Virus genome (UHGV): UHGV-0279745
Direction: 5' to 3' (one strand)
DNA length: 64,000 nt
Origin: a virus
Shown: in pieces, positions 7,608 to 39,281 of the stretch
Layout: every line of letters starts with the position of its first letter
Position numbering within the stretch: position 1 is the first letter of the stretch
Made by a program: the position numbers and the translations under genes
The notes under the pieces: model-generated
Told to the model about the DNA's origin: nothing
Databases searched by the model: none
What the model saw: the letters and a program-made list of their open reading frames with translations, nothing else

Positions 7608-8144
7608 ATGGCTAAAGCTTTCAATCTGCAGCTCATTGAAGCTGTTAAAGCTAAAAACCCAGACACTGCGTCTAAACTGACCGTAGAAGACGTTGATTTT
7701 GGCGCTGTTGCTGCGTTCAGCGGCAAATCTGGACGTAATACTAAAATTACGCTGACTGCAAAAGAAAAAAGTGCTAACTTTACCGGCAGCAAAGAATTCC
7801 ATTATATCCGTCTGGCATCCCAAGACCTGATCGGTGCTAAAGCTTACCAGCAGGAAGGTAGCCTCGAACTGGAAAACGCTGCCATTGTAGCCAAACTGAA
7901 CGAAGAGATGGTTACTAAAGGTTATGTAGATGACGCGTTTGCAGAAGGCGAACTCACCATCGAAAAATCTGATGGCGAAAGCGGTGCTAAAGTTTACACC
8001 GTTAAAGTAAACGATGCGCACATCAAATTCTTAGCCGGTACCATTGCCACCTTCACCTATACCAACCCGGTTCCTCCGAAGGTAGCTCTGAGCGGCCTGG
8101 AAGGTGAACTGGATAGCTTCACCGCTCCGGGTATCGGGGGCTAA
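7608..8144 (+). CDS. hypothetical abundant protein (178 aa), paralogue of 8215-8745
   Basis: Strong RBS; biased codon usage; own terminator; NTKITLTA and GELDSFT motifs shared with 8215 gene. Confidence 0.75.
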   Translation: MAKAFNLQLIEAVKAKNPDTASKLTVEDVDFGAVAAFSGKSGRNTKITLTAKEKSANFTGSKEFHYIRLASQDLIGAKAYQQEGSLELENAAIVAKLNEEMVTKGYVDDAFAEGELTIEKSDGESGAKVYTVKVNDAHIKFLAGTIATFTYTNPVPPKVALSGLEGELDSFTAPGIGG

Positions 8145-8153
8145 GTAAGTTAA

Positions 8154-8188
8154 ATCGGGGAGGGGGTAACCTCCCCGATATTTCTTTA
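8154..8188 (+). terminator. rho-independent terminator
   Basis: atcggggagg-loop-cctccccgat followed by T-rich tail. Confidence 0.6.
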
Positions 8189-8214
8189 ACTCGTACTATT
8201 AAGGATTTAAGATA

Positions 8215-8745
8215 ATGGCAGCTACTAACCAGATGATGTTGGTCGCGCTTTATAATGCTGCTAACACTGAGCTACCACATCAGATTACTGATAAAGAAGT
8301 GTCCTTTGGTCTCCCTACTGCGCTGGAAGGCGAAGGTAAGAATACCAAAGTTACCATGACTGCACTGCCGGGTTCTGAGAATTTCAAAGGCGCAATCGAA
8401 CTGAAATACGATCGTCTGGAGCCGGGTGTTGTAGGTCGTATTGAGCTAACTGACGATCTGTCTCGCTGGGTTCAAGAAAATGAACTGCGCGCTTGGTTAC
8501 AATATTACATCAACAAAGTAAAACCTGACGACGCTATCGCACCAGCTGACGTTGTGTACAACACCGAAGACCAGAAAGACGAACATGAAAACGTCACTCT
8601 GCGTACCGTGACGTGCACCGTTACTGAAAGAAACCTCCGTTATAAACCAGGTGTAATGGCAACTTTCGTAATTACGCCGAAAGTTGTTGATAATCGTATT
8701 GACCTGGCCACCACCAACGGCGAGCTGGACGGTTTTACGTCCTAA
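8215..8745 (+). CDS. hypothetical abundant protein (176 aa), paralogue of 7608-8144
   Basis: AAGGA RBS; NTKVTMTA and GELDGFT motifs. Confidence 0.75.
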   Translation: MAATNQMMLVALYNAANTELPHQITDKEVSFGLPTALEGEGKNTKVTMTALPGSENFKGAIELKYDRLEPGVVGRIELTDDLSRWVQENELRAWLQYYINKVKPDDAIAPADVVYNTEDQKDEHENVTLRTVTCTVTERNLRYKPGVMATFVITPKVVDNRIDLATTNGELDGFTS

Positions 8746-30798: not shown

Positions 30799-31008
30799 TT
30801 AGTCTTTTTTGTAGACAATTGCGTTACCGTGCAGTTTGTTGTTGCCGGAAATACCGATAACTTTGAATGCGTCGCCGCCAATTTTTTCAGCTTCAGCAGC
30901 CAGCTTACCCGTTACATGATCAACGGTGTCGCCGAAAGCGCTAACGTTACCGATTTTCTTAAACTCTTCTGGAATATGCTCAGCAGAAGAGAACTCTTTA
31001 ATAGACAT
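30799..31008 (-). CDS. small hypothetical protein (69 aa)
   Basis: ATG with GGAGAG RBS; isolated by hairpins on both sides. Confidence 0.6.
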   Translation of the reverse strand: MSIKEFSSAEHIPEEFKKIGNVSAFGDTVDHVTGKLAAEAEKIGGDAFKVIGISGNNKLHGNAIVYKKD

Positions 31009-31214
31009 AACAGCTCTCCATTTCAAAAGGAAGGTGGTCTAAGACCGACGTGTGTTACAACCGAAGCATAAGATAGCTCCTCCCCGTAGGGAGGAGTAGA
31101 GTGCGCGAAAAAAGTGGCCTGCTTAACTAAACGATGGGTTTAAGAAAAGTGTTGATAAAAAGCTTTACCAACGTCAGGTCACAATATATAAACACAACGT
31201 AAGAAAAAGGGGAA

Positions 31215-32200: not shown

Positions 32201-32260
32201 AATTGATTTCAGATATATATTACTTAAGTGAATAGGGGCTGAACTGGCACTTCAGCCCCT
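32201..32260 (+). promoter_or_regulatory. third copy of the promoter-like core motif (atttcagatatatattactta) followed by 10-bp-stem hairpin (32234-32260)
   Basis: Shares core with the elements at 335 and 36581; hairpin aggggctgaa/ttcagcccct. Confidence 0.45.
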
Positions 32261-32313: not shown

Positions 32314-32457
32314 ATGTCTACTAAAAAGAAAGAAAGTCTCAATGAGCTGCTCAAACGGCTTAAAGACTACACTCCATTTAGTACCTGTTATCGGAAGGTA
32401 CTAAAATTTTACAGTCTGCCCCTTTATTCTGCTACTCGGGATACCGGTAGGGGGTAG
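32314..32457 (+). CDS. small basic ORF (47 aa), not in ORF track
   Basis: GGGGAGA RBS 6 nt upstream of ATG; downstream of promoter-like element. Confidence 0.3.
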   Translation: MSTKKKESLNELLKRLKDYTPFSTCYRKVLKFYSLPLYSATRDTGRG

Positions 32458-32601: not shown

Positions 32602-33336
32602 ATGAGAGAATTATTAGACGATATCTTTACTAACACCAATTTAGAACTTTCTTCTACGGTGGTTAATGAACTAATAGGGCAATCCCAACCTGCTAAGTTA
32701 GTCTCTGCTGAAACAATTAAACCCGAAGATTATCCAGACAGTGACGTTATCGACAGCATGGTTGACGAATACACGATAAGCAGTCACGCCAACCGGTTCT
32801 TCTTTGTTCTTAATACCGAAACCAGCGTCATTTTATTCTATAAATTGATCAGTGACGCCGAACTTGAAGTCGTAGCGGAACATGTTCGCCTCATTGCCAG
32901 CACGCCTACCGTTTCCGATGTTACGTTTATTGGAGGAAGCAGTATGCTGACGCTATACTCTTACTTCCCACTGTTTAGACATGGGGTAGGGTTAATCAAG
33001 CATGTAGAAAACCTTCCCACTGATGTAGAATTAACGTTGCTCGGCCGGGACATCAGTCTTTATCCCTTAAAAGATAACGGTAAGTTATACGGTTTACGTA
33101 TCTATGTTTCTTGGTTAGAGGGATACCGCGTTATTGAACTGATTGCATCAGGCTTAACAAAACAAATCCCAGAGGCGGAAACGATTTCTAAAGCCACTCA
33201 CCTAGTTGAGATTAATCCAGACGATCCGTTTTTACAGTATCACACAGAAAATTCCCTTCGTGGTGTCGCTGCCGTAAAAGGGTGGAGTTGTGCTGAGATT
33301 ACGAAGGGCTATCTGCTGCTAATTAAAACCGCGTAA
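32602..33336 (+). CDS. hypothetical protein (244 aa), member of the GW...QLLF C-terminal motif family
   Basis: C-terminus VKGWSCAEITKGYLLLI; N-terminal LDDIF shared with 35166 gene. Confidence 0.7.
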   Translation: MRELLDDIFTNTNLELSSTVVNELIGQSQPAKLVSAETIKPEDYPDSDVIDSMVDEYTISSHANRFFFVLNTETSVILFYKLISDAELEVVAEHVRLIASTPTVSDVTFIGGSSMLTLYSYFPLFRHGVGLIKHVENLPTDVELTLLGRDISLYPLKDNGKLYGLRIYVSWLEGYRVIELIASGLTKQIPEAETISKATHLVEINPDDPFLQYHTENSLRGVAAVKGWSCAEITKGYLLLIKTA

Positions 33337-33362
33337 GTAAAAACCTAAAAGGAGAATATATC

Positions 33363-33917
33363 ATGTATCTGACTAAACTGAAAAATGAAATTATCCAATC
33401 CCTTGAAAAAGGTGTAGGTGAACATTTCTTTAACTGTCCCTATACCGTACTGACCAATACCATTATTCAGCCAGGTGCGATGATAGTAGGGGTGAGTGTA
33501 CAAGCTGTGGAGGAAACCCCGCTGCGTCGCAACATCACGCGTAAAACGCATATCCCATTTAGAACGGGCTTTACAGATTACCTTCAGAGCTTACTGAAAG
33601 ATAGCGTTTGGAAAACAGGCAGCTTCTTCCACGATGGGAAGACTTCCACGCTGGTTTATAAAGAGAACACCAAGTATCTGGTTGATTTTCTCTTAGCGCG
33701 TCAATACGATTTCTTTCCATCCCCTTCTGGCACCACCCCTGATAATCCAGGTAAGTTATTAAACCAAGACGAAGCCGAAGCACTCTTTACAAGACTTCGG
33801 AATGAGCACTGCGATGTTGATGACTGGGAAACGTTGATCGCTGTCGCCAAAGTACATGGTTGGTATACTGTACGTAAAATCGGTCAGCAGTTGTTGTTCT
33901 TAGCTTACCCTGCTTAA
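33363..33917 (+). CDS. hypothetical protein (184 aa), GW...QLLF family
   Basis: AAGGAGA RBS; C-terminus HGWYTVRKIGQQLLFLAYPA. Confidence 0.7.
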   Translation: MYLTKLKNEIIQSLEKGVGEHFFNCPYTVLTNTIIQPGAMIVGVSVQAVEETPLRRNITRKTHIPFRTGFTDYLQSLLKDSVWKTGSFFHDGKTSTLVYKENTKYLVDFLLARQYDFFPSPSGTTPDNPGKLLNQDEAEALFTRLRNEHCDVDDWETLIAVAKVHGWYTVRKIGQQLLFLAYPA

Positions 33918-33946
33918 GTAACGAAAAACCCTAAAGGAGAGTAAAA

Positions 33947-35098
33947 ATGCGAAATATTATTTCTAAGCCAGGACATGCCAAGATCCTAAAAGAACTGATG
34001 GACAGATGCTATAATCGGACTTGGTCACTACCAAGCTTAACCATCGAGTCTTCATTACAACGTGAGTTGTTTGGTTATAACTTGGGCTGTTGTGTACTTA
34101 GTGAATACAACCAGGTTATCGCGCCTGTCGATGTCTGTACTTCCGATGAAGAAATTGAAGGTTACCAGTTCACAGCTTACACAAATTGTGGACTAAATTA
34201 CCGTAAACTCGTTGTTAGGGAAATGAGTAGCAACCGGAAGATTATGTTTAAGGTCTTCCCAAGTGGTAAAGTCAGTAATTTATGTTTTCAGCTTGAGAAA
34301 GTGCCCTTTCACGGTGCAGCCATTTTAACTAAACCAGAACTCCTGTTATTAAGCGGGTTAATTGGCTTTGAAGTAAAAACCATCAAAGTTGAGCAGGAAC
34401 TTACACGAAACGATTTCGGCTCAACTTGGTACGAAAGTTTCTTCCGCTACGAAATGTTAAGTGATAAAGCTATCAAACTCACTTACCGTTCTACCGACGA
34501 CATCGTTTACCACATTTTAATTAGCGGCGAACCCCACCAGATTATTGAAGTCGGAGGAGAAAAATCCGTGCGTACCTTAAAAGATGAATTAACTGATTTT
34601 GTTAACAAAATTGATAACGTGGGTATCAGTGAATTATTGTTCCCGATTCAACATCCAGAGCTGCTTGACGAGAAATCTGAAAACGTGGTTATGGGTGTGC
34701 ATTTACTTCCTGACCATCTTGCTATCTACCGTACACTTTCTAAGAATCAACTTAAAGTGTGGTGCCTGTTAAAAGACCTTTTAACAGAGGCGGGGTGGTC
34801 GTGTAGTGTAGATGTTAACTGTGAAGGAGTTGCGTTCTTCATCACAATAGGCAATCGTAGTTTTTCTGTCGATTTACCTACTCGCAGCTATTACAATTTC
34901 TTCCCGACCGCAGAAGGACGTACTGAAAAAGAACCCGCATTACTGCTCAGTGCTGAGGAGTCCAATGCGTTAATGGCGAAACTAAAGGCGAAAGACGAGA
35001 AGCTGGATGCTTTACATCTACCTATAATCGGGAAAGACTACGGTTGGGCTGACGTGCAAAAATACGGCAGTCAGCTGTTGTTTGTTGCTGACCTTTAA
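33947..35098 (+). CDS. hypothetical protein (383 aa), GW...QLLF family
   Basis: AAGGAGAG RBS; C-terminus YGWADVQKYGSQLLFVADL. Confidence 0.7.
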   Translation: MRNIISKPGHAKILKELMDRCYNRTWSLPSLTIESSLQRELFGYNLGCCVLSEYNQVIAPVDVCTSDEEIEGYQFTAYTNCGLNYRKLVVREMSSNRKIMFKVFPSGKVSNLCFQLEKVPFHGAAILTKPELLLLSGLIGFEVKTIKVEQELTRNDFGSTWYESFFRYEMLSDKAIKLTYRSTDDIVYHILISGEPHQIIEVGGEKSVRTLKDELTDFVNKIDNVGISELLFPIQHPELLDEKSENVVMGVHLLPDHLAIYRTLSKNQLKVWCLLKDLLTEAGWSCSVDVNCEGVAFFITIGNRSFSVDLPTRSYYNFFPTAEGRTEKEPALLLSAEESNALMAKLKAKDEKLDALHLPIIGKDYGWADVQKYGSQLLFVADL

Positions 35099-35165
35099 TA
35101 AGTGAAACTACACTTTCTCTAACTGCCGCGCTTTAGTCGCGGCTTTTGTTAAGAAGGAAATAGAA

Positions 35166-35939
35166 ATGAAAGTCCATTTAGACGACATCTTTAAAACCGA
35201 ACCGTATATGATCGAAGGTTCGCTAACATCACTACTATTTGCCGATAGATTAGATCGTACGCTGCAATTACAATCGGTCGAATCTGCACCCGTTGATGAT
35301 GTAGAGCGTTACGAGCGCATCAATCATACGCGGGGTGAGTATCGTCGCTATAAGCCAAATTCACTAAGCATCAAGCTCTGGCAAGTGAGCACAGGTAAAG
35401 TATTAACTTATCGCGCTGTCGGTAGTTATTACATTCAACAAGCCAAAGAATGGCTAGAGAAAGTTAAAGAACTGAACTTCGATCTACTGAGCAAAAAACT
35501 GCGCGATCATAACGCCAGTTTGCCGATACGTAATTATTTCTCCACGATTGAAAATAGTCGATGCTTCGTTTCACGTGAAACCACGATATTACCTGGGGCT
35601 GATGTTCAGACGACACTAAAAGATGTGGTTGTGAAGAAAATCTTTCATGAATCTGAACACGTTGGATTTCGTATCTATTTAACGCACAAGAGACCATTTA
35701 CCGTGATTCACGTTGTTACCGCACCCGAAGGCTCAGCGGTTATTCGAGAACTTCCTGATGCTCGAGACCGTTGCCCTAATGAGCCGCTTTATTTAATGTC
35801 AGGAACAAAATCAACCGCGTTGATGTCCCGTTACAGCATGTTAGATGTTGTTGACGCTGCTATGAAACTGGGTTGGAAAGAAGTGCAGCAACATGGTAAA
35901 CAATTGCTGTTTATTGCCGATGTAAAACTTAATCAATAG
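35166..35939 (+). CDS. hypothetical protein (257 aa), GW...QLLF family
   Basis: AAGGAAA RBS; C-terminus LGWKEVQQHGKQLLFIADV. Confidence 0.7.
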   Translation: MKVHLDDIFKTEPYMIEGSLTSLLFADRLDRTLQLQSVESAPVDDVERYERINHTRGEYRRYKPNSLSIKLWQVSTGKVLTYRAVGSYYIQQAKEWLEKVKELNFDLLSKKLRDHNASLPIRNYFSTIENSRCFVSRETTILPGADVQTTLKDVVVKKIFHESEHVGFRIYLTHKRPFTVIHVVTAPEGSAVIRELPDARDRCPNEPLYLMSGTKSTALMSRYSMLDVVDAAMKLGWKEVQQHGKQLLFIADVKLNQ

Positions 35940-35951
35940 TGAGGTGGTACC

Positions 35952-36530
35952 GTGTACCGATTAATAGAAATGCGAAAAGACGTTTGGTTGGAAAACCTCG
36001 TCGATGGGGAGCTTGAGGGAATAGAGCTTTCCTTACCAGAAAGAGCGGACACGGTATTGGTCTTTCTGATAAAACAGGCAGCGAAGGAACCGGTAGGAAT
36101 CTTCAGCGTGGACTATAAAGACCCACGAGGGATTCATTTACGGAACATTTGCAGTGGTTTGGAAAGCTTACCGGCTAATCCGTTCTTAAACTACGCAAAA
36201 CGTAAACTCCAGCCAGGGCAACATCTCTGGGTAGTTCTAGCGCCTGATACACGCATTATACGTGACGACCTGACTGCGTTTGTCCAAGCAACGAAAGTCA
36301 GTTTGTACAATCCTAATGCGGATCGTACCGATATGCCGTTTACAATCACCTTAGAAGACGATGGAACGCAAGAGGGTATTGAGGCAATTACGGAATTAGT
36401 AAACTCTTATCCGGTAGCGTCTATTGAGTTAGAAAACCCAAACCGATTACCGTTGGGTGATTTACTCGAATGGATTGAGCTGAATACCGAGTTCCTCATT
36501 AACTCCCGGCAGTACCGGTTCGATGTATAA
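35952..36530 (+). CDS. hypothetical protein (192 aa)
   Basis: GTG start with GAGGTGG RBS; terminator downstream. Confidence 0.6.
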   Translation: MYRLIEMRKDVWLENLVDGELEGIELSLPERADTVLVFLIKQAAKEPVGIFSVDYKDPRGIHLRNICSGLESLPANPFLNYAKRKLQPGQHLWVVLAPDTRIIRDDLTAFVQATKVSLYNPNADRTDMPFTITLEDDGTQEGIEAITELVNSYPVASIELENPNRLPLGDLLEWIELNTEFLINSRQYRFDV

Positions 36531-36534
36531 CATC

Positions 36535-36567
36535 GGTGGGGGTAAACCCCCCACCTTTTATTTTTTT
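36535..36567 (+). terminator. rho-independent terminator
   Basis: ggtggggg-taaa-cccccacc followed by T-run. Confidence 0.7.
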
Positions 36568-36580
36568 GTTCGTTAATATT

Positions 36581-36631
36581 AAAAATAATTTCAGATATAT
36601 ATTACCTAGGTGAGAGTACAAAAGCTCTCAC
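36581..36631 (+). promoter_or_regulatory. second copy of promoter-like motif plus gtgagag/ctctcac hairpin
   Basis: About 95 percent identical to 335-410 over ~75 bp. Confidence 0.5.
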
Positions 36632-36660
36632 TTAATAAAACCATTTTAGGAGTATTAAAG

Positions 36661-37032
36661 ATGAAAAACGAATTATTTAAAGACCCGTTTGTTGTATTAA
36701 TGATCGTTACTCGCGCTGCCACTAACCCAGAAAACCTGAAACGTTTACTTACTAACGAAGCATACCTTATCGAACAGCGTGACGCGCAGTTAGCCAAACC
36801 GCACGCTGAAGGCCAGGCGAAAGACCTTATCTCTATTTTCCGTAACGAAGAATGGCGTAAAAACAACGAGCTGTCCGACAACTTGACGGTTGCAATTGCA
36901 AAACTCTTGACACTGTTCAATCTCGACAAAGACATTAACCAAAGCCTTTCTACAGAAGAACGTCTGGAAATGATAAGAGGTATCGGAGATAGTTATACAC
37001 AGATTAAAGCATTCCCCAACACAGTTATTTAA
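36661..37032 (+). CDS. hypothetical protein (123 aa)
   Basis: ATG after conserved leader ttttaggagtattaaag. Confidence 0.7.
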   Translation: MKNELFKDPFVVLMIVTRAATNPENLKRLLTNEAYLIEQRDAQLAKPHAEGQAKDLISIFRNEEWRKNNELSDNLTVAIAKLLTLFNLDKDINQSLSTEERLEMIRGIGDSYTQIKAFPNTVI

Positions 37033-37078: not shown

Positions 37079-37540
37079 ATGAAAACCTTTATCACATTCT
37101 TAATAACCATTTTAACTTTCGGCCTCAATAGCGCACACGCCGCTATCAACAGCTGGGAACAAATACAAAACCCTGGGCAGGCAGTTTACGAAATCGAGGA
37201 CACCGCCGGAAACGGACTGTCTATCAACTGTGACACAGAAACTGCGAATCGCAAATTTTACGGTCGCATGGTTTGGTATTACGGTGAACCCGTAGGTGCA
37301 ACTAACGCGGAAGATAACACGATGGATATTGTCGTAAACGGCAAAACCTATAACATCCCTACCGTGGACGGTAGTGACAAAGCAGAACACGCTTGGGTTG
37401 CTTTCGTTAAAGCTATCGGTAATGCCAAAACTTTCAGTGTGAGTATCAATGGTAACGATGCCGCTAACTTTACCGTAGAAGGCGAACGTCTGTCTGAAAC
37501 TTTCTTCCAAAACTGTGGACACACCCGTCCTAACAAATAA
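37079..37540 (+). CDS. small secreted protein (153 aa) with Sec signal peptide
   Basis: MKTFITFLITILTFGLNSAHA then AINS; GAAGGAG RBS. Confidence 0.7.
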   Translation: MKTFITFLITILTFGLNSAHAAINSWEQIQNPGQAVYEIEDTAGNGLSINCDTETANRKFYGRMVWYYGEPVGATNAEDNTMDIVVNGKTYNIPTVDGSDKAEHAWVAFVKAIGNAKTFSVSINGNDAANFTVEGERLSETFFQNCGHTRPNK

Positions 37541-37562
37541 CTATTAGTCTTTTTTAGAGTGC

Positions 37563-37955
37563 GTGAAAATGAATATCAGAACTATACTTTATACCATCAT
37601 TATTTTCTGTGCGGTCGGAATTACTGGCACTTATGCTTTCGGTGATTCAGATGTCCGTTATTACGAACCGGCTCCTGACTCACCGATTATCAACCCGGAT
37701 GAGACGCCTACGTTAATGCGCAGTTTCGGTAAACTACAAGTTTATCGTTTAGTGCGTGGTGAAACGTGTACGGGATTACTCATTGCTGACACCCGTGCAC
37801 AAGTCTACCAACGTCTGACGGATATCGCCTGCGAACAACCAAAAGTCATGTCAGTTAGTATCCATCCGCTATCAGTTGGTAACTATACCGCTGTGGACTT
37901 CTTTCACAACGCCGAATTAATCGGACGTGTTACCTTAAATCGCCCTGCTGAATAA
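37563..37955 (+). CDS. small secreted protein (~130 aa) with signal peptide; start uncertain (GTG 37563 or ATG 37569)
   Basis: N-terminal hydrophobic segment TILYTIIIFCAVGITGTYA. Confidence 0.65.
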   Translation: MKMNIRTILYTIIIFCAVGITGTYAFGDSDVRYYEPAPDSPIINPDETPTLMRSFGKLQVYRLVRGETCTGLLIADTRAQVYQRLTDIACEQPKVMSVSIHPLSVGNYTAVDFFHNAELIGRVTLNRPAE

Positions 37956-37973
37956 TCTAAAGGAGTAGTTATA

Positions 37974-38459
37974 ATGAAACGTTTACACACATTGATGTTC
38001 TTTCTGGTTTTCTTGTTTATCGGTGTCACGCCAACTGTAGATGCGGCCTCCGTAGACGAATTGCTTACCTGCGATGGAAACGCTTGGGAAGGTCAGCCAA
38101 ATGCGTGCCCAAACATCAACGACTTGTACGATACCGATAAGTCGTTTAAAGCCGTTGTTGATAAAACATTAGACCCTGTGGGACTGGATGGTATGTTCGG
38201 CTCTAAAGGTTACATGGATGGCCCTGGTGGTAACATGTATCCGGTAAACATCAACAACAAAATCTGGATTGAAAGTGGCGGTTGTAAAGCTAACGCTTGT
38301 GGTTGGGAATACATCGTAACGCTATACAACCCACACACCAAGAAACTCGTCGGCTATTACTACAACATCGACCCCGGTTATCTGATTTGGTTCGGTGATA
38401 TCGGTGTTGCCGAATTCGCTTACCTGGTTAAGAAATACGTAGAACAATCTAAATACTAA
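37974..38459 (+). CDS. small secreted protein (161 aa), 4 Cys
   Basis: MKRLHTLMFFLVFLFIGVTPTVDA signal peptide; AAAGGAG RBS. Confidence 0.7.
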   Translation: MKRLHTLMFFLVFLFIGVTPTVDAASVDELLTCDGNAWEGQPNACPNINDLYDTDKSFKAVVDKTLDPVGLDGMFGSKGYMDGPGGNMYPVNINNKIWIESGGCKANACGWEYIVTLYNPHTKKLVGYYYNIDPGYLIWFGDIGVAEFAYLVKKYVEQSKY

Positions 38460-38470
38460 GGACTTTTATC

Positions 38471-38881
38471 ATGAAAACTATCATCAATACTCTTCTCATT
38501 GCAATGGCTGTTCTGTTCTCTGTCAACGCTACAGCAAAAACAATACAGTTGCCAGACAATATTAAGTACGTCAATAGTACCGATGATTTCTATTGTACGG
38601 AAATTGACGGGTTGTACTGCCAGGCGAAAAGCCTGTTTAAATACAAAGGTAGCAGATACGTATTCATCGTTGAGCAAGGTGGTGCCTGGTGCTACGACAG
38701 CCCAATGTCCGTACTCAACCTCGAAACGTGGAAGGCTCAGCGTCTCGAATACAACGACAAACGTCTGTGCTCTGGTAATAACAAACCATTCTTCGAAGTC
38801 GTAGATGGTGTGCCAATGGTAGGGATATTAGACACTTCGGAAAAACCTATCGTTGTAGCTATGGATAAACTTAAAATTTAA
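38471..38881 (+). CDS. small secreted protein (136 aa), 4 Cys
   Basis: MKTIINTLLIAMAVLFSVNATA signal peptide. Confidence 0.7.
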   Translation: MKTIINTLLIAMAVLFSVNATAKTIQLPDNIKYVNSTDDFYCTEIDGLYCQAKSLFKYKGSRYVFIVEQGGAWCYDSPMSVLNLETWKAQRLEYNDKRLCSGNNKPFFEVVDGVPMVGILDTSEKPIVVAMDKLKI

Positions 38882-38891
38882 GGAGTAACTC

Positions 38892-39281
38892 ATGCGTCTC
38901 GTCTGCGTTTTAGCATTCTTCTTCTCCCTGAGTGTAGCAGCATCTACTCAAGTTAACGATTTACTGCTAACCCCAAACAACAATACCGATTACCAGTACA
39001 ATCCTCCGGGGTTTGAAGTTTGTGAAGTCGGTGAAACAATCTGCCAAGAAGTCGGCGCAGACGGGCGCTATATTCTGGTAAAAGCTGATGGTGGCACAAT
39101 GTGTCCCGCAGGTTATTACTTTCTGCTCGATTCCGTCGCAAGAGAGGTTCTTCCTATCACCACGAAAACGTGCGACCCTACCGTTGTCTTAACTCTCGCT
39201 AAAAGCAAATCTCGCGACCGTTATCTGATCGTTATCGAAGAACGGGGCAAGATGGCTGGTGCTATCGAATTAGATCATTGA
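38892..39281 (+). CDS. small secreted protein (129 aa), 4 Cys
   Basis: MRLVCVLAFFFSLSVAAS signal peptide; AAGGAG RBS; terminator downstream. Confidence 0.7.
   Translation: MRLVCVLAFFFSLSVAASTQVNDLLLTPNNNTDYQYNPPGFEVCEVGETICQEVGADGRYILVKADGGTMCPAGYYFLLDSVAREVLPITTKTCDPTVVLTLAKSKSRDRYLIVIEERGKMAGAIELDH

Follow-up and report, generated by a model that had tools for sequence, protein, structure and literature searches.

The internal proteins IPI, IPII and IPIII of phage T4 are encoded in a hypervariable locus and join different bodies to a shared capsid-targeting sequence, a cleaved N-terminal peptide of about ten residues; the proteins are packaged into the head, and some of the bodies counter host defence. 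The 64,000-nucleotide stretch of the virus genome UHGV-0279745 that we have analysed, henceforth the window, contains a locus of a similar kind: four consecutive open reading frames (ORFs), named A, B, C and D in their order along the + strand, form an array in which a hypervariable locus again provides different bodies for one short conserved module. The two systems differ in the module, which is a mostly C-terminal folded domain of 65-70 amino acids (aa) in the array rather than a cleaved N-terminal peptide, and in the destination of the proteins, as the T4 proteins are packaged whereas the ortholog in phage SPN3US is absent from the virion proteome. Our work identifies the array as an uncharacterised domain family that is locally expanded, an arrangement of the known phage multigene-family kind. 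As the best explanation, we propose that the genes of the array go back to a single accessory gene of SPN3US-like nucleus-forming jumbo phages (the SPN3US gp175 family), of which this lineage has three or four ancient paralogs side by side; taken as a whole, this explanation has an about even chance of being correct.

The closest described relatives of the array are the single-copy genes SPN3US gp175, Asesino gp195, Phobos gp176, CR5 gp165 and Derbicus gp170. In each of these phages, one gene with the domain is located directly after a divergently transcribed baseplate gene (phrog_3216). The group resembles the array in the C-terminal domain, in the genomic slot and, in most of the phages, in an upstream promoter-like motif, but it has one gene per locus as compared to three or four in the window lineage, and its N-terminal bodies have no detectable similarity to each other. 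Homologs of gp175 have been given for phiEaH2 and CR5, and none for phiKZ (PMC5105663, Table S1); in the literature that we searched, the function of SPN3US gp175 is nowhere mentioned. The mass spectrometry table of the SPN3US virion contains gp167-171 and gp173, whereas gp175 is absent (PMC5105663, Table S4). Since this proteome lists the neighbours of gp175 but not the protein itself, a virion-packaging signal is unlikely, and judging from the published proteome that covers the SPN3US ortholog, the array proteins are themselves unlikely to be packaged into the virion. The array also resembles the early operons of phiKZ-like and AR9-like phages. In jumbo phages, conserved AT-rich motifs that are read by the virion RNA polymerase as early promoters precede such operons, and the small genes of unknown function that follow have the same orientation (PMC7598289, PMC8244752). 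The numbers of motif copies differ, with about ten per genome in the window group and 28-32 reported for phiKZ.

The conserved domain and its distribution

A preliminary description of the window had reported the four ORfs of the array with the same coordinates and lengths that we find (see Table 1), and had suggested that all four proteins end in a conserved unit of about 20 residues. Formal alignment of the C-termini supports the common end for three of the proteins: B and C are similar over 108 aa (E 5e-14, BLASTP), and C and D over 65 aa (E 2e-10, BLASTP). Moreover, in order to avoid circularity, we made a hidden Markov model (HMM) whose only input was C-terminal sequences from five other phages. 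This outside HMM was searched against the 594 six-frame ORFs of the window, and it matched D (E 9e-15), C (E 1e-12) and B (E 2e-6) but no further ORF. As the outside HMM recovers B, C and D, we can conclude that the similarity is real for these three genes, whereas the common C-terminus is not detectable by sequence alone in A (E 0.24-2.7 with the domain HMMs). The conserved unit is considerably larger than the 20 residues originally seen: it has the consensus [IL]PDxxDR[ST]xN[DE]PxYLMSxK...AKxxGWxxVQxxGxQLLF, comprises 65-70 residues, and in the B-C pair the similarity reaches 108 aa. A part of this long B-C similarity results from an additional, incomplete match to the helix-GW-strand region of the profile, which is located upstream of the full domain (residues ~79-99 in B and ~271-289 in C) and hints at an internal duplication of this sub-motif in the two proteins. 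Of the PHROG families, 26772, 33648, 24489 and 18480, all annotated as 'unknown function', are matched by C and D but not by B.

The AlphaFold2 model of the last 71 residues of C, based on an alignment of 30 sequences, has a predicted local distance difference test score (pLDDT) of 95 and a predicted template-modelling score (pTM) of 0.81. It consists of an ordered N-terminal arm that is followed by a strand, two helices and a beta-hairpin (beta-alpha-alpha-beta-beta). According to this model, the conserved unit is an independently folding domain of 65-70 aa rather than a tail peptide. This result, as well as the presence of the domain alone or at the N-terminus of other proteins, does not agree with the short tail or targeting peptide that had been proposed previously. 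Charge, taken as a proxy for nucleic-acid binding, is not consistently basic in the domain, with a median isoelectric point of 6.3 and a range from 4.2 to 9.4. Searches in Pfam, NCBIfam and PADLOC did not reveal any family above threshold for A-D, for the stand-alone members or for all 30 domain sequences, and a sequence-profile search of the PDB with the domain returned nothing below E 0.05. With Foldseek, the matches among viral models were uncharacterised jumbo-phage proteins only; several of these have consecutive UniProt accessions, some of them with names, and are apparently paralogs that belong to one phage.

Other jumbo phages carry the domain as well. An exhaustive HMMER search in 1.84 billion representative proteins resulted in 61 clusters at E <= 0.001, and 59 of them are credible. 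The two others, the giant repeat proteins P0026 and P0061, were dropped as spurious because they have many weak partial matches to the helical middle of the profile. About 25 of the 59 clusters are proteins of 72-152 aa with little beyond the domain, and in three clusters the domain is located at the N-terminus. The stand-alone domain genes are found on contigs of 225-270 kb amid small accessory genes, including genes for Tad2-like, glutaredoxin and HNH proteins.

For gene A, the relation to the family was studied with profiles and models. When a profile of 15 A orthologs was aligned to the domain profile, only the last 25 residues were covered (hhalign E 1.3e-4, probability 53%). The AlphaFold model of A (58 sequences, pLDDT 88.6, pTM 0.83) ends with the elements E199-203, H209-213, H216-225, E230-234 and E237-241, i. 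e. the element order of the domain with a shortened first helix, and the residues P190, G227, W228 and L239 sit in columns that are invariant in an alignment of nine proteins. In addition, the profiles of A and D can be aligned weakly and collinearly over 155 columns (hhalign E 4e-4, probability 34%). Judging from both the sequence and the model, gene A is probably a diverged paralog, of D. The N-terminal LDDIF sequence that had been noticed in two of the proteins is literally present in A and D. A loose N-terminal pattern, a helix and then [LM]x[IL]E[SG]S[LV]xxxL[FI][GA], is common to A 1-30, C 13-45 and D 1-27 (protein coordinates); it widens the LDDIF observation to C and is not significant if taken alone (hhalign E 0.14). 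A DNA repeat search detected no nucleotide-level duplication among the four genes, which indicates that the paralogy in the array is old. In outline, the preliminary description was right in assuming an expanded family of paralogs that carry a conserved C-terminal module on variable bodies.

The locus, its diversification and its candidate promoter

The window is part of the genome of an SPN3US/Asesino-like nucleus-forming jumbo phage (Chimalliviridae). A neighbouring 420-aa protein shares 80% identity with gp191 of the Erwinia phage Asesino and 76% with SPN3US gp171, and none of the isolated phages is closer than these SPN3US/Asesino-type relatives. The near relatives are contigs of 217-227 kb in the data of E. 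coli, Shigella and Salmonella isolates. With the DNA of the locus, megablast found two relatives only, both deposited as 'plasmids' of about 222 kb: a complete circular molecule of 221,873 bp in E. coli 98232 (NZ_CP173450.1; L015 and L017-L021 in our collection of loci) and a circular one of 222,441 bp in Enterobacter ludwigii (NZ_CP134650.1; L016). These two records are parts of complete genomes and are labelled as non-mobilizable. The occurrence of the relatives suggests a jumbo phage that is carried along with bacterial isolates. Against phage genomes, blastn in the distant mode with the locus DNA gave no match, and tblastn searches with A and with the N-terminal body of C gave nothing meaningful.

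The array occupies the same syntenic slot as the single-copy genes, between phrog_3216 and the gp176-like gene of phrog_20879. Its genes, all on the + strand, are separated by 26 bp (A-B), 29 bp (B-C) and 67 bp (C-D). Four genes are present in this slot in the related loci L012 and L013 and in E. coli p98232. L006 has four genes as well, with B broken into ORFs of 55 and 102 aa, and the E. ludwigii relative has three and lacks gene A. The split B of L006 (positions 7770-8309 of that contig) misses about 30 residues between the two ORFs, and the 102-aa product is found on several contigs; it is either a product of decay or a short form that consists of the domain only. When the complete 221.9-kb relative was searched with the profile in six frames, the domain was identified in B, C and D only, without any further copy. 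D is likely to be the ortholog of SPN3US gp175 since it is the best conserved gene, gives the best match to the outside profile and abuts the gp176-like gene, just as gp175 abuts gp176 in SPN3US. The gp176-like gene is probably part of one transcription unit with the array.

We have compared four related phages with respect to identity and to the ratio of nonsynonymous to synonymous substitution rates (dN/dS). In the flanking structural genes, dN/dS is 0.02-0.08 at an amino acid identity of 90-99%. For A, B and C, dN/dS is 0.13-0.38 and the identity 43-95%, with 43-73% between the more distant relatives, and D has a dN/dS of 0.06-0.14. As all these values are below 1, A-D are functional genes. 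A sliding-window analysis of identity revealed sharp mosaic breaks inside A, across B and at ~34526 in C: the 5' half of C stays 91-99% identical, whereas its 3' half, starting at about this position, is a divergent recombinant allele. The locus is a hot spot of recombination and diversification.

The array is headed by an AT-rich promoter-like motif of 25 nucleotides, TTTCAGATATATATTACYTARGTGA, which has three exact copies in the window (starting at 343, 32207 and 36589) as compared to 0 expected. All three are intergenic and on the + strand, and each precedes a block of genes in the same orientation. The copies at 343-367 and 36589-36613 (+) are each followed by a hairpin, a shared leader (AAACCATTT..GGAG) and a block of small genes. 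In the complete 221.9-kb relative, there are ten copies in a single orientation, each of them intergenic and co-oriented with the downstream gene. In Phobos, CR5, Derbicus and, as a variant, in Asesino, the motif precedes the family gene by about 100 bp; in the window lineage, it is located 354-392 bp upstream of A, with a conserved micro-ORF in between. This leader micro-ORF is kept as 25-26 aa (MSTEKKSGLDEV...) in L006, L012, L013, L015 and L016, and the leader sequence recurs after the motif copy at 36589. A scan for sigma-70 promoters showed no enrichment (11 found as compared to 8.6 expected). A text search of the literature for the motif core, TATATTAC, yielded nothing relevant, and neither an SPN3US transcriptome nor transcript data for SPN3US-like phages were found there. 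As the motif resembles the described early promoters of jumbo phages, it is by analogy that we regard the array as probably expressed early from a candidate promoter of the virion RNA polymerase.

Possible functions of the array proteins

How can these observations be brought together? We suggest that the array encodes accessory proteins that do not belong to the virion, are probably made early, and combine a shared binding domain with bodies that diversify, a proposal that we consider as likely to hold as to fail. Each protein would join a variable, fast-evolving and recombining N-terminal body to the conserved 65-70-aa domain, and the proteins would be made early in infection from the conserved AT-rich promoter by the injected virion RNA polymerase. 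The domain would then serve as a shared binding module and tether every body to one and the same partner, which may more likely be a protein than a nucleic acid, and the bodies would diversify under host-driven selection, as expected of functions in host takeover or counter-defence. A common docking role is the most plausible reading for the domain. Several points weigh against this proposal. The early timing is deduced by analogy with the promoters of phiKZ and AR9, and in the relative the motif also heads an operon with a GH108 lysozyme-like gene, which does not seem to be a typical early gene. The absence of gp175 from the virion is negative evidence from one virion proteome of one relative, and the membership of gene A in the family is weakly supported. 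Finally, since stand-alone domain proteins exist, the activity may reside in the domain, which would then not be an adaptor. It is tempting to go one step further and to speculate that the domain is a shared docking handle by which, in infections with nucleus-forming phages, a diversifying set of early effector bodies is brought to a single hub, for instance the nuclear shell, the import machinery of this shell or a defence complex of the host. This more specific idea is rather unlikely; if it were true, the stand-alone domain proteins of other jumbo phages would occupy or compete for the same hub, and the chimalliviruses would possess a modular early-effector system specific to them.

The main rival is derived from the structure. 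Winged-helix domains are the top, though weak, structural matches of the domain, and they resemble it in having two helices and then a beta-hairpin. If the domain were of this nucleic-acid-binding type, the array proteins might be phage regulators that bind DNA or RNA and use their variable bodies for sensing or recruitment. This explanation is weakly supported and appears doubtful to us: the canonical order of winged-helix elements, H1-S1-H2-H3-S2-W1-S3, is not found in the domain model (S-H-H-S-S), which has no helix before the first strand, and a clear structural match to solved winged-helix domains was not obtained. The conserved end on unrelated bodies in consecutive genes would also be expected if a short C-terminal peptide targeted diverse effectors to a common destination by virion packaging, secretion or phage-nucleus import, and the Chimalliviridae indeed sort proteins between the phage nucleus and the cytoplasm (PMC10643120). 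Such a peptide is quite improbable, as the conserved unit is a folded domain of 65-70 aa that also occurs alone and at N-termini, as SPN3US gp175 is outside the virion proteome, and as A-D, in contrast to the genes at 37079-39281, lack a signal peptide.

Even less probable is a role of the array proteins as tail or baseplate assembly factors, i. e. as non-virion chaperones. The family gene is always found beside the baseplate gene (phrog_3216) and large tail proteins, and assembly chaperones are typically not present in virions. But the array is encoded on the opposite strand behind a promoter-like motif of its own, which also heads blocks of small accessory genes, and the stand-alone copies elsewhere are surrounded by Tad2-like, glutaredoxin and HNH genes rather than by tail genes. 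Moreover, the flanking structural genes and A/B/C do not co-vary, since the structural genes remain 90-98% identical while A/B/C drop to 43-73%. Finally, the similarity might be due to chance or low complexity without any real family. This would be in line with gene A, which alone is at the level of chance (E 0.24-2.7), but a profile made without B, C and D recovers all three, there are 59 credible clusters among the 1.84 billion representative proteins, and the fold is predicted with confidence. For B, C and D, chance similarity is refuted, and for the family as a whole it is hardly conceivable.

For the majority of genes in nucleus-forming jumbo phages, no function has been assigned. Our work defines a compact, jumbo-phage-specific domain with a confident fold prediction, for which there is neither a Pfam entry nor a solved relative. 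The domain is a tractable handle because it occurs alone, is fused to many unrelated bodies, and has been expanded locally at a hot spot of recombination that follows a candidate early promoter. In isolation, it could serve directly as bait for a common partner, and host-specific functions in takeover or counter-defence may be sought in the variable bodies. From the promoter-like motif, in turn, about ten transcription units can be predicted for this group of phages, a map that is open to testing.

Features of the locus and its surroundings

The features of the array and its transcription unit are compiled in Table 1.

Table 1. Features of the array locus in the window, in the order of their positions.
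Feature	Position	Strand	Remarks
AT-rich promoter-like motif TTTCAGATATATATTACTTAAGTGA	32207-32231	+	heads the array; candidate early (virion RNA polymerase) promoter
Leader micro-ORF	32314-32457	+	47 aa in the window; first ORF after the motif; GGAG ribosome-binding site
Gene A	32602-33336	+	244 aa; acidic, fast-evolving; 76 orthologs
Putative degenerate domain copy in A	33160-33333	+	residues ~187-244; from model element order, invariant-column residues and 25-column hhalign
Gene B	33363-33917	+	184 aa
Domain in B	33696-33914	+	outside HMM E 2e-6; broad profile E 5e-21
Gene C	33947-35098	+	383 aa
Domain in C	34883-35095	+	outside HMM E 1e-12; sequence used for modelling
Terminator-like hairpin between C and D	35125-35143	+	consensus scan only
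Gene D	35166-35939	+	257 aa; most conserved array member
Domain in D	35718-35924	+	outside HMM E 9e-15; PHROG 26772 E 1.7e-9
gp176-like gene (phrog_20879)	35952-36530	+	192 aa; starts 12 bp after D; without the domain
Terminator-like hairpin closing the unit	36535-36555	+	consensus scan only

Downstream of the unit, an ORF of 140 aa (36610-37032, +; phrog_27024) is located between the motif copy and a YfjT-like gene; its true start is probably near 36661. The ORF is missing in L006, L012 and L013, where the identity drops to 23-42%, and it is an inserted accessory gene. The region that follows (37079-39281, +) contains five small consecutive ORFs (153, 130, 161, 136 and 129 aa), all with signal-peptide-like hydrophobic N-termini, and the ortholog of the first of them in L006 carries the Pfam domain YfjT (PF27224). 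On the other side of the array, between the gene for the 420-aa virion protein and the baseplate gene, there is an ORF of 75 aa (30799-31026, -) without an obvious signal peptide. Its 69-aa orthologs contain a YdgH/BhsA-like domain (DUF1471, PF07338), a host-like domain of small stress and biofilm proteins in a jumbo phage.

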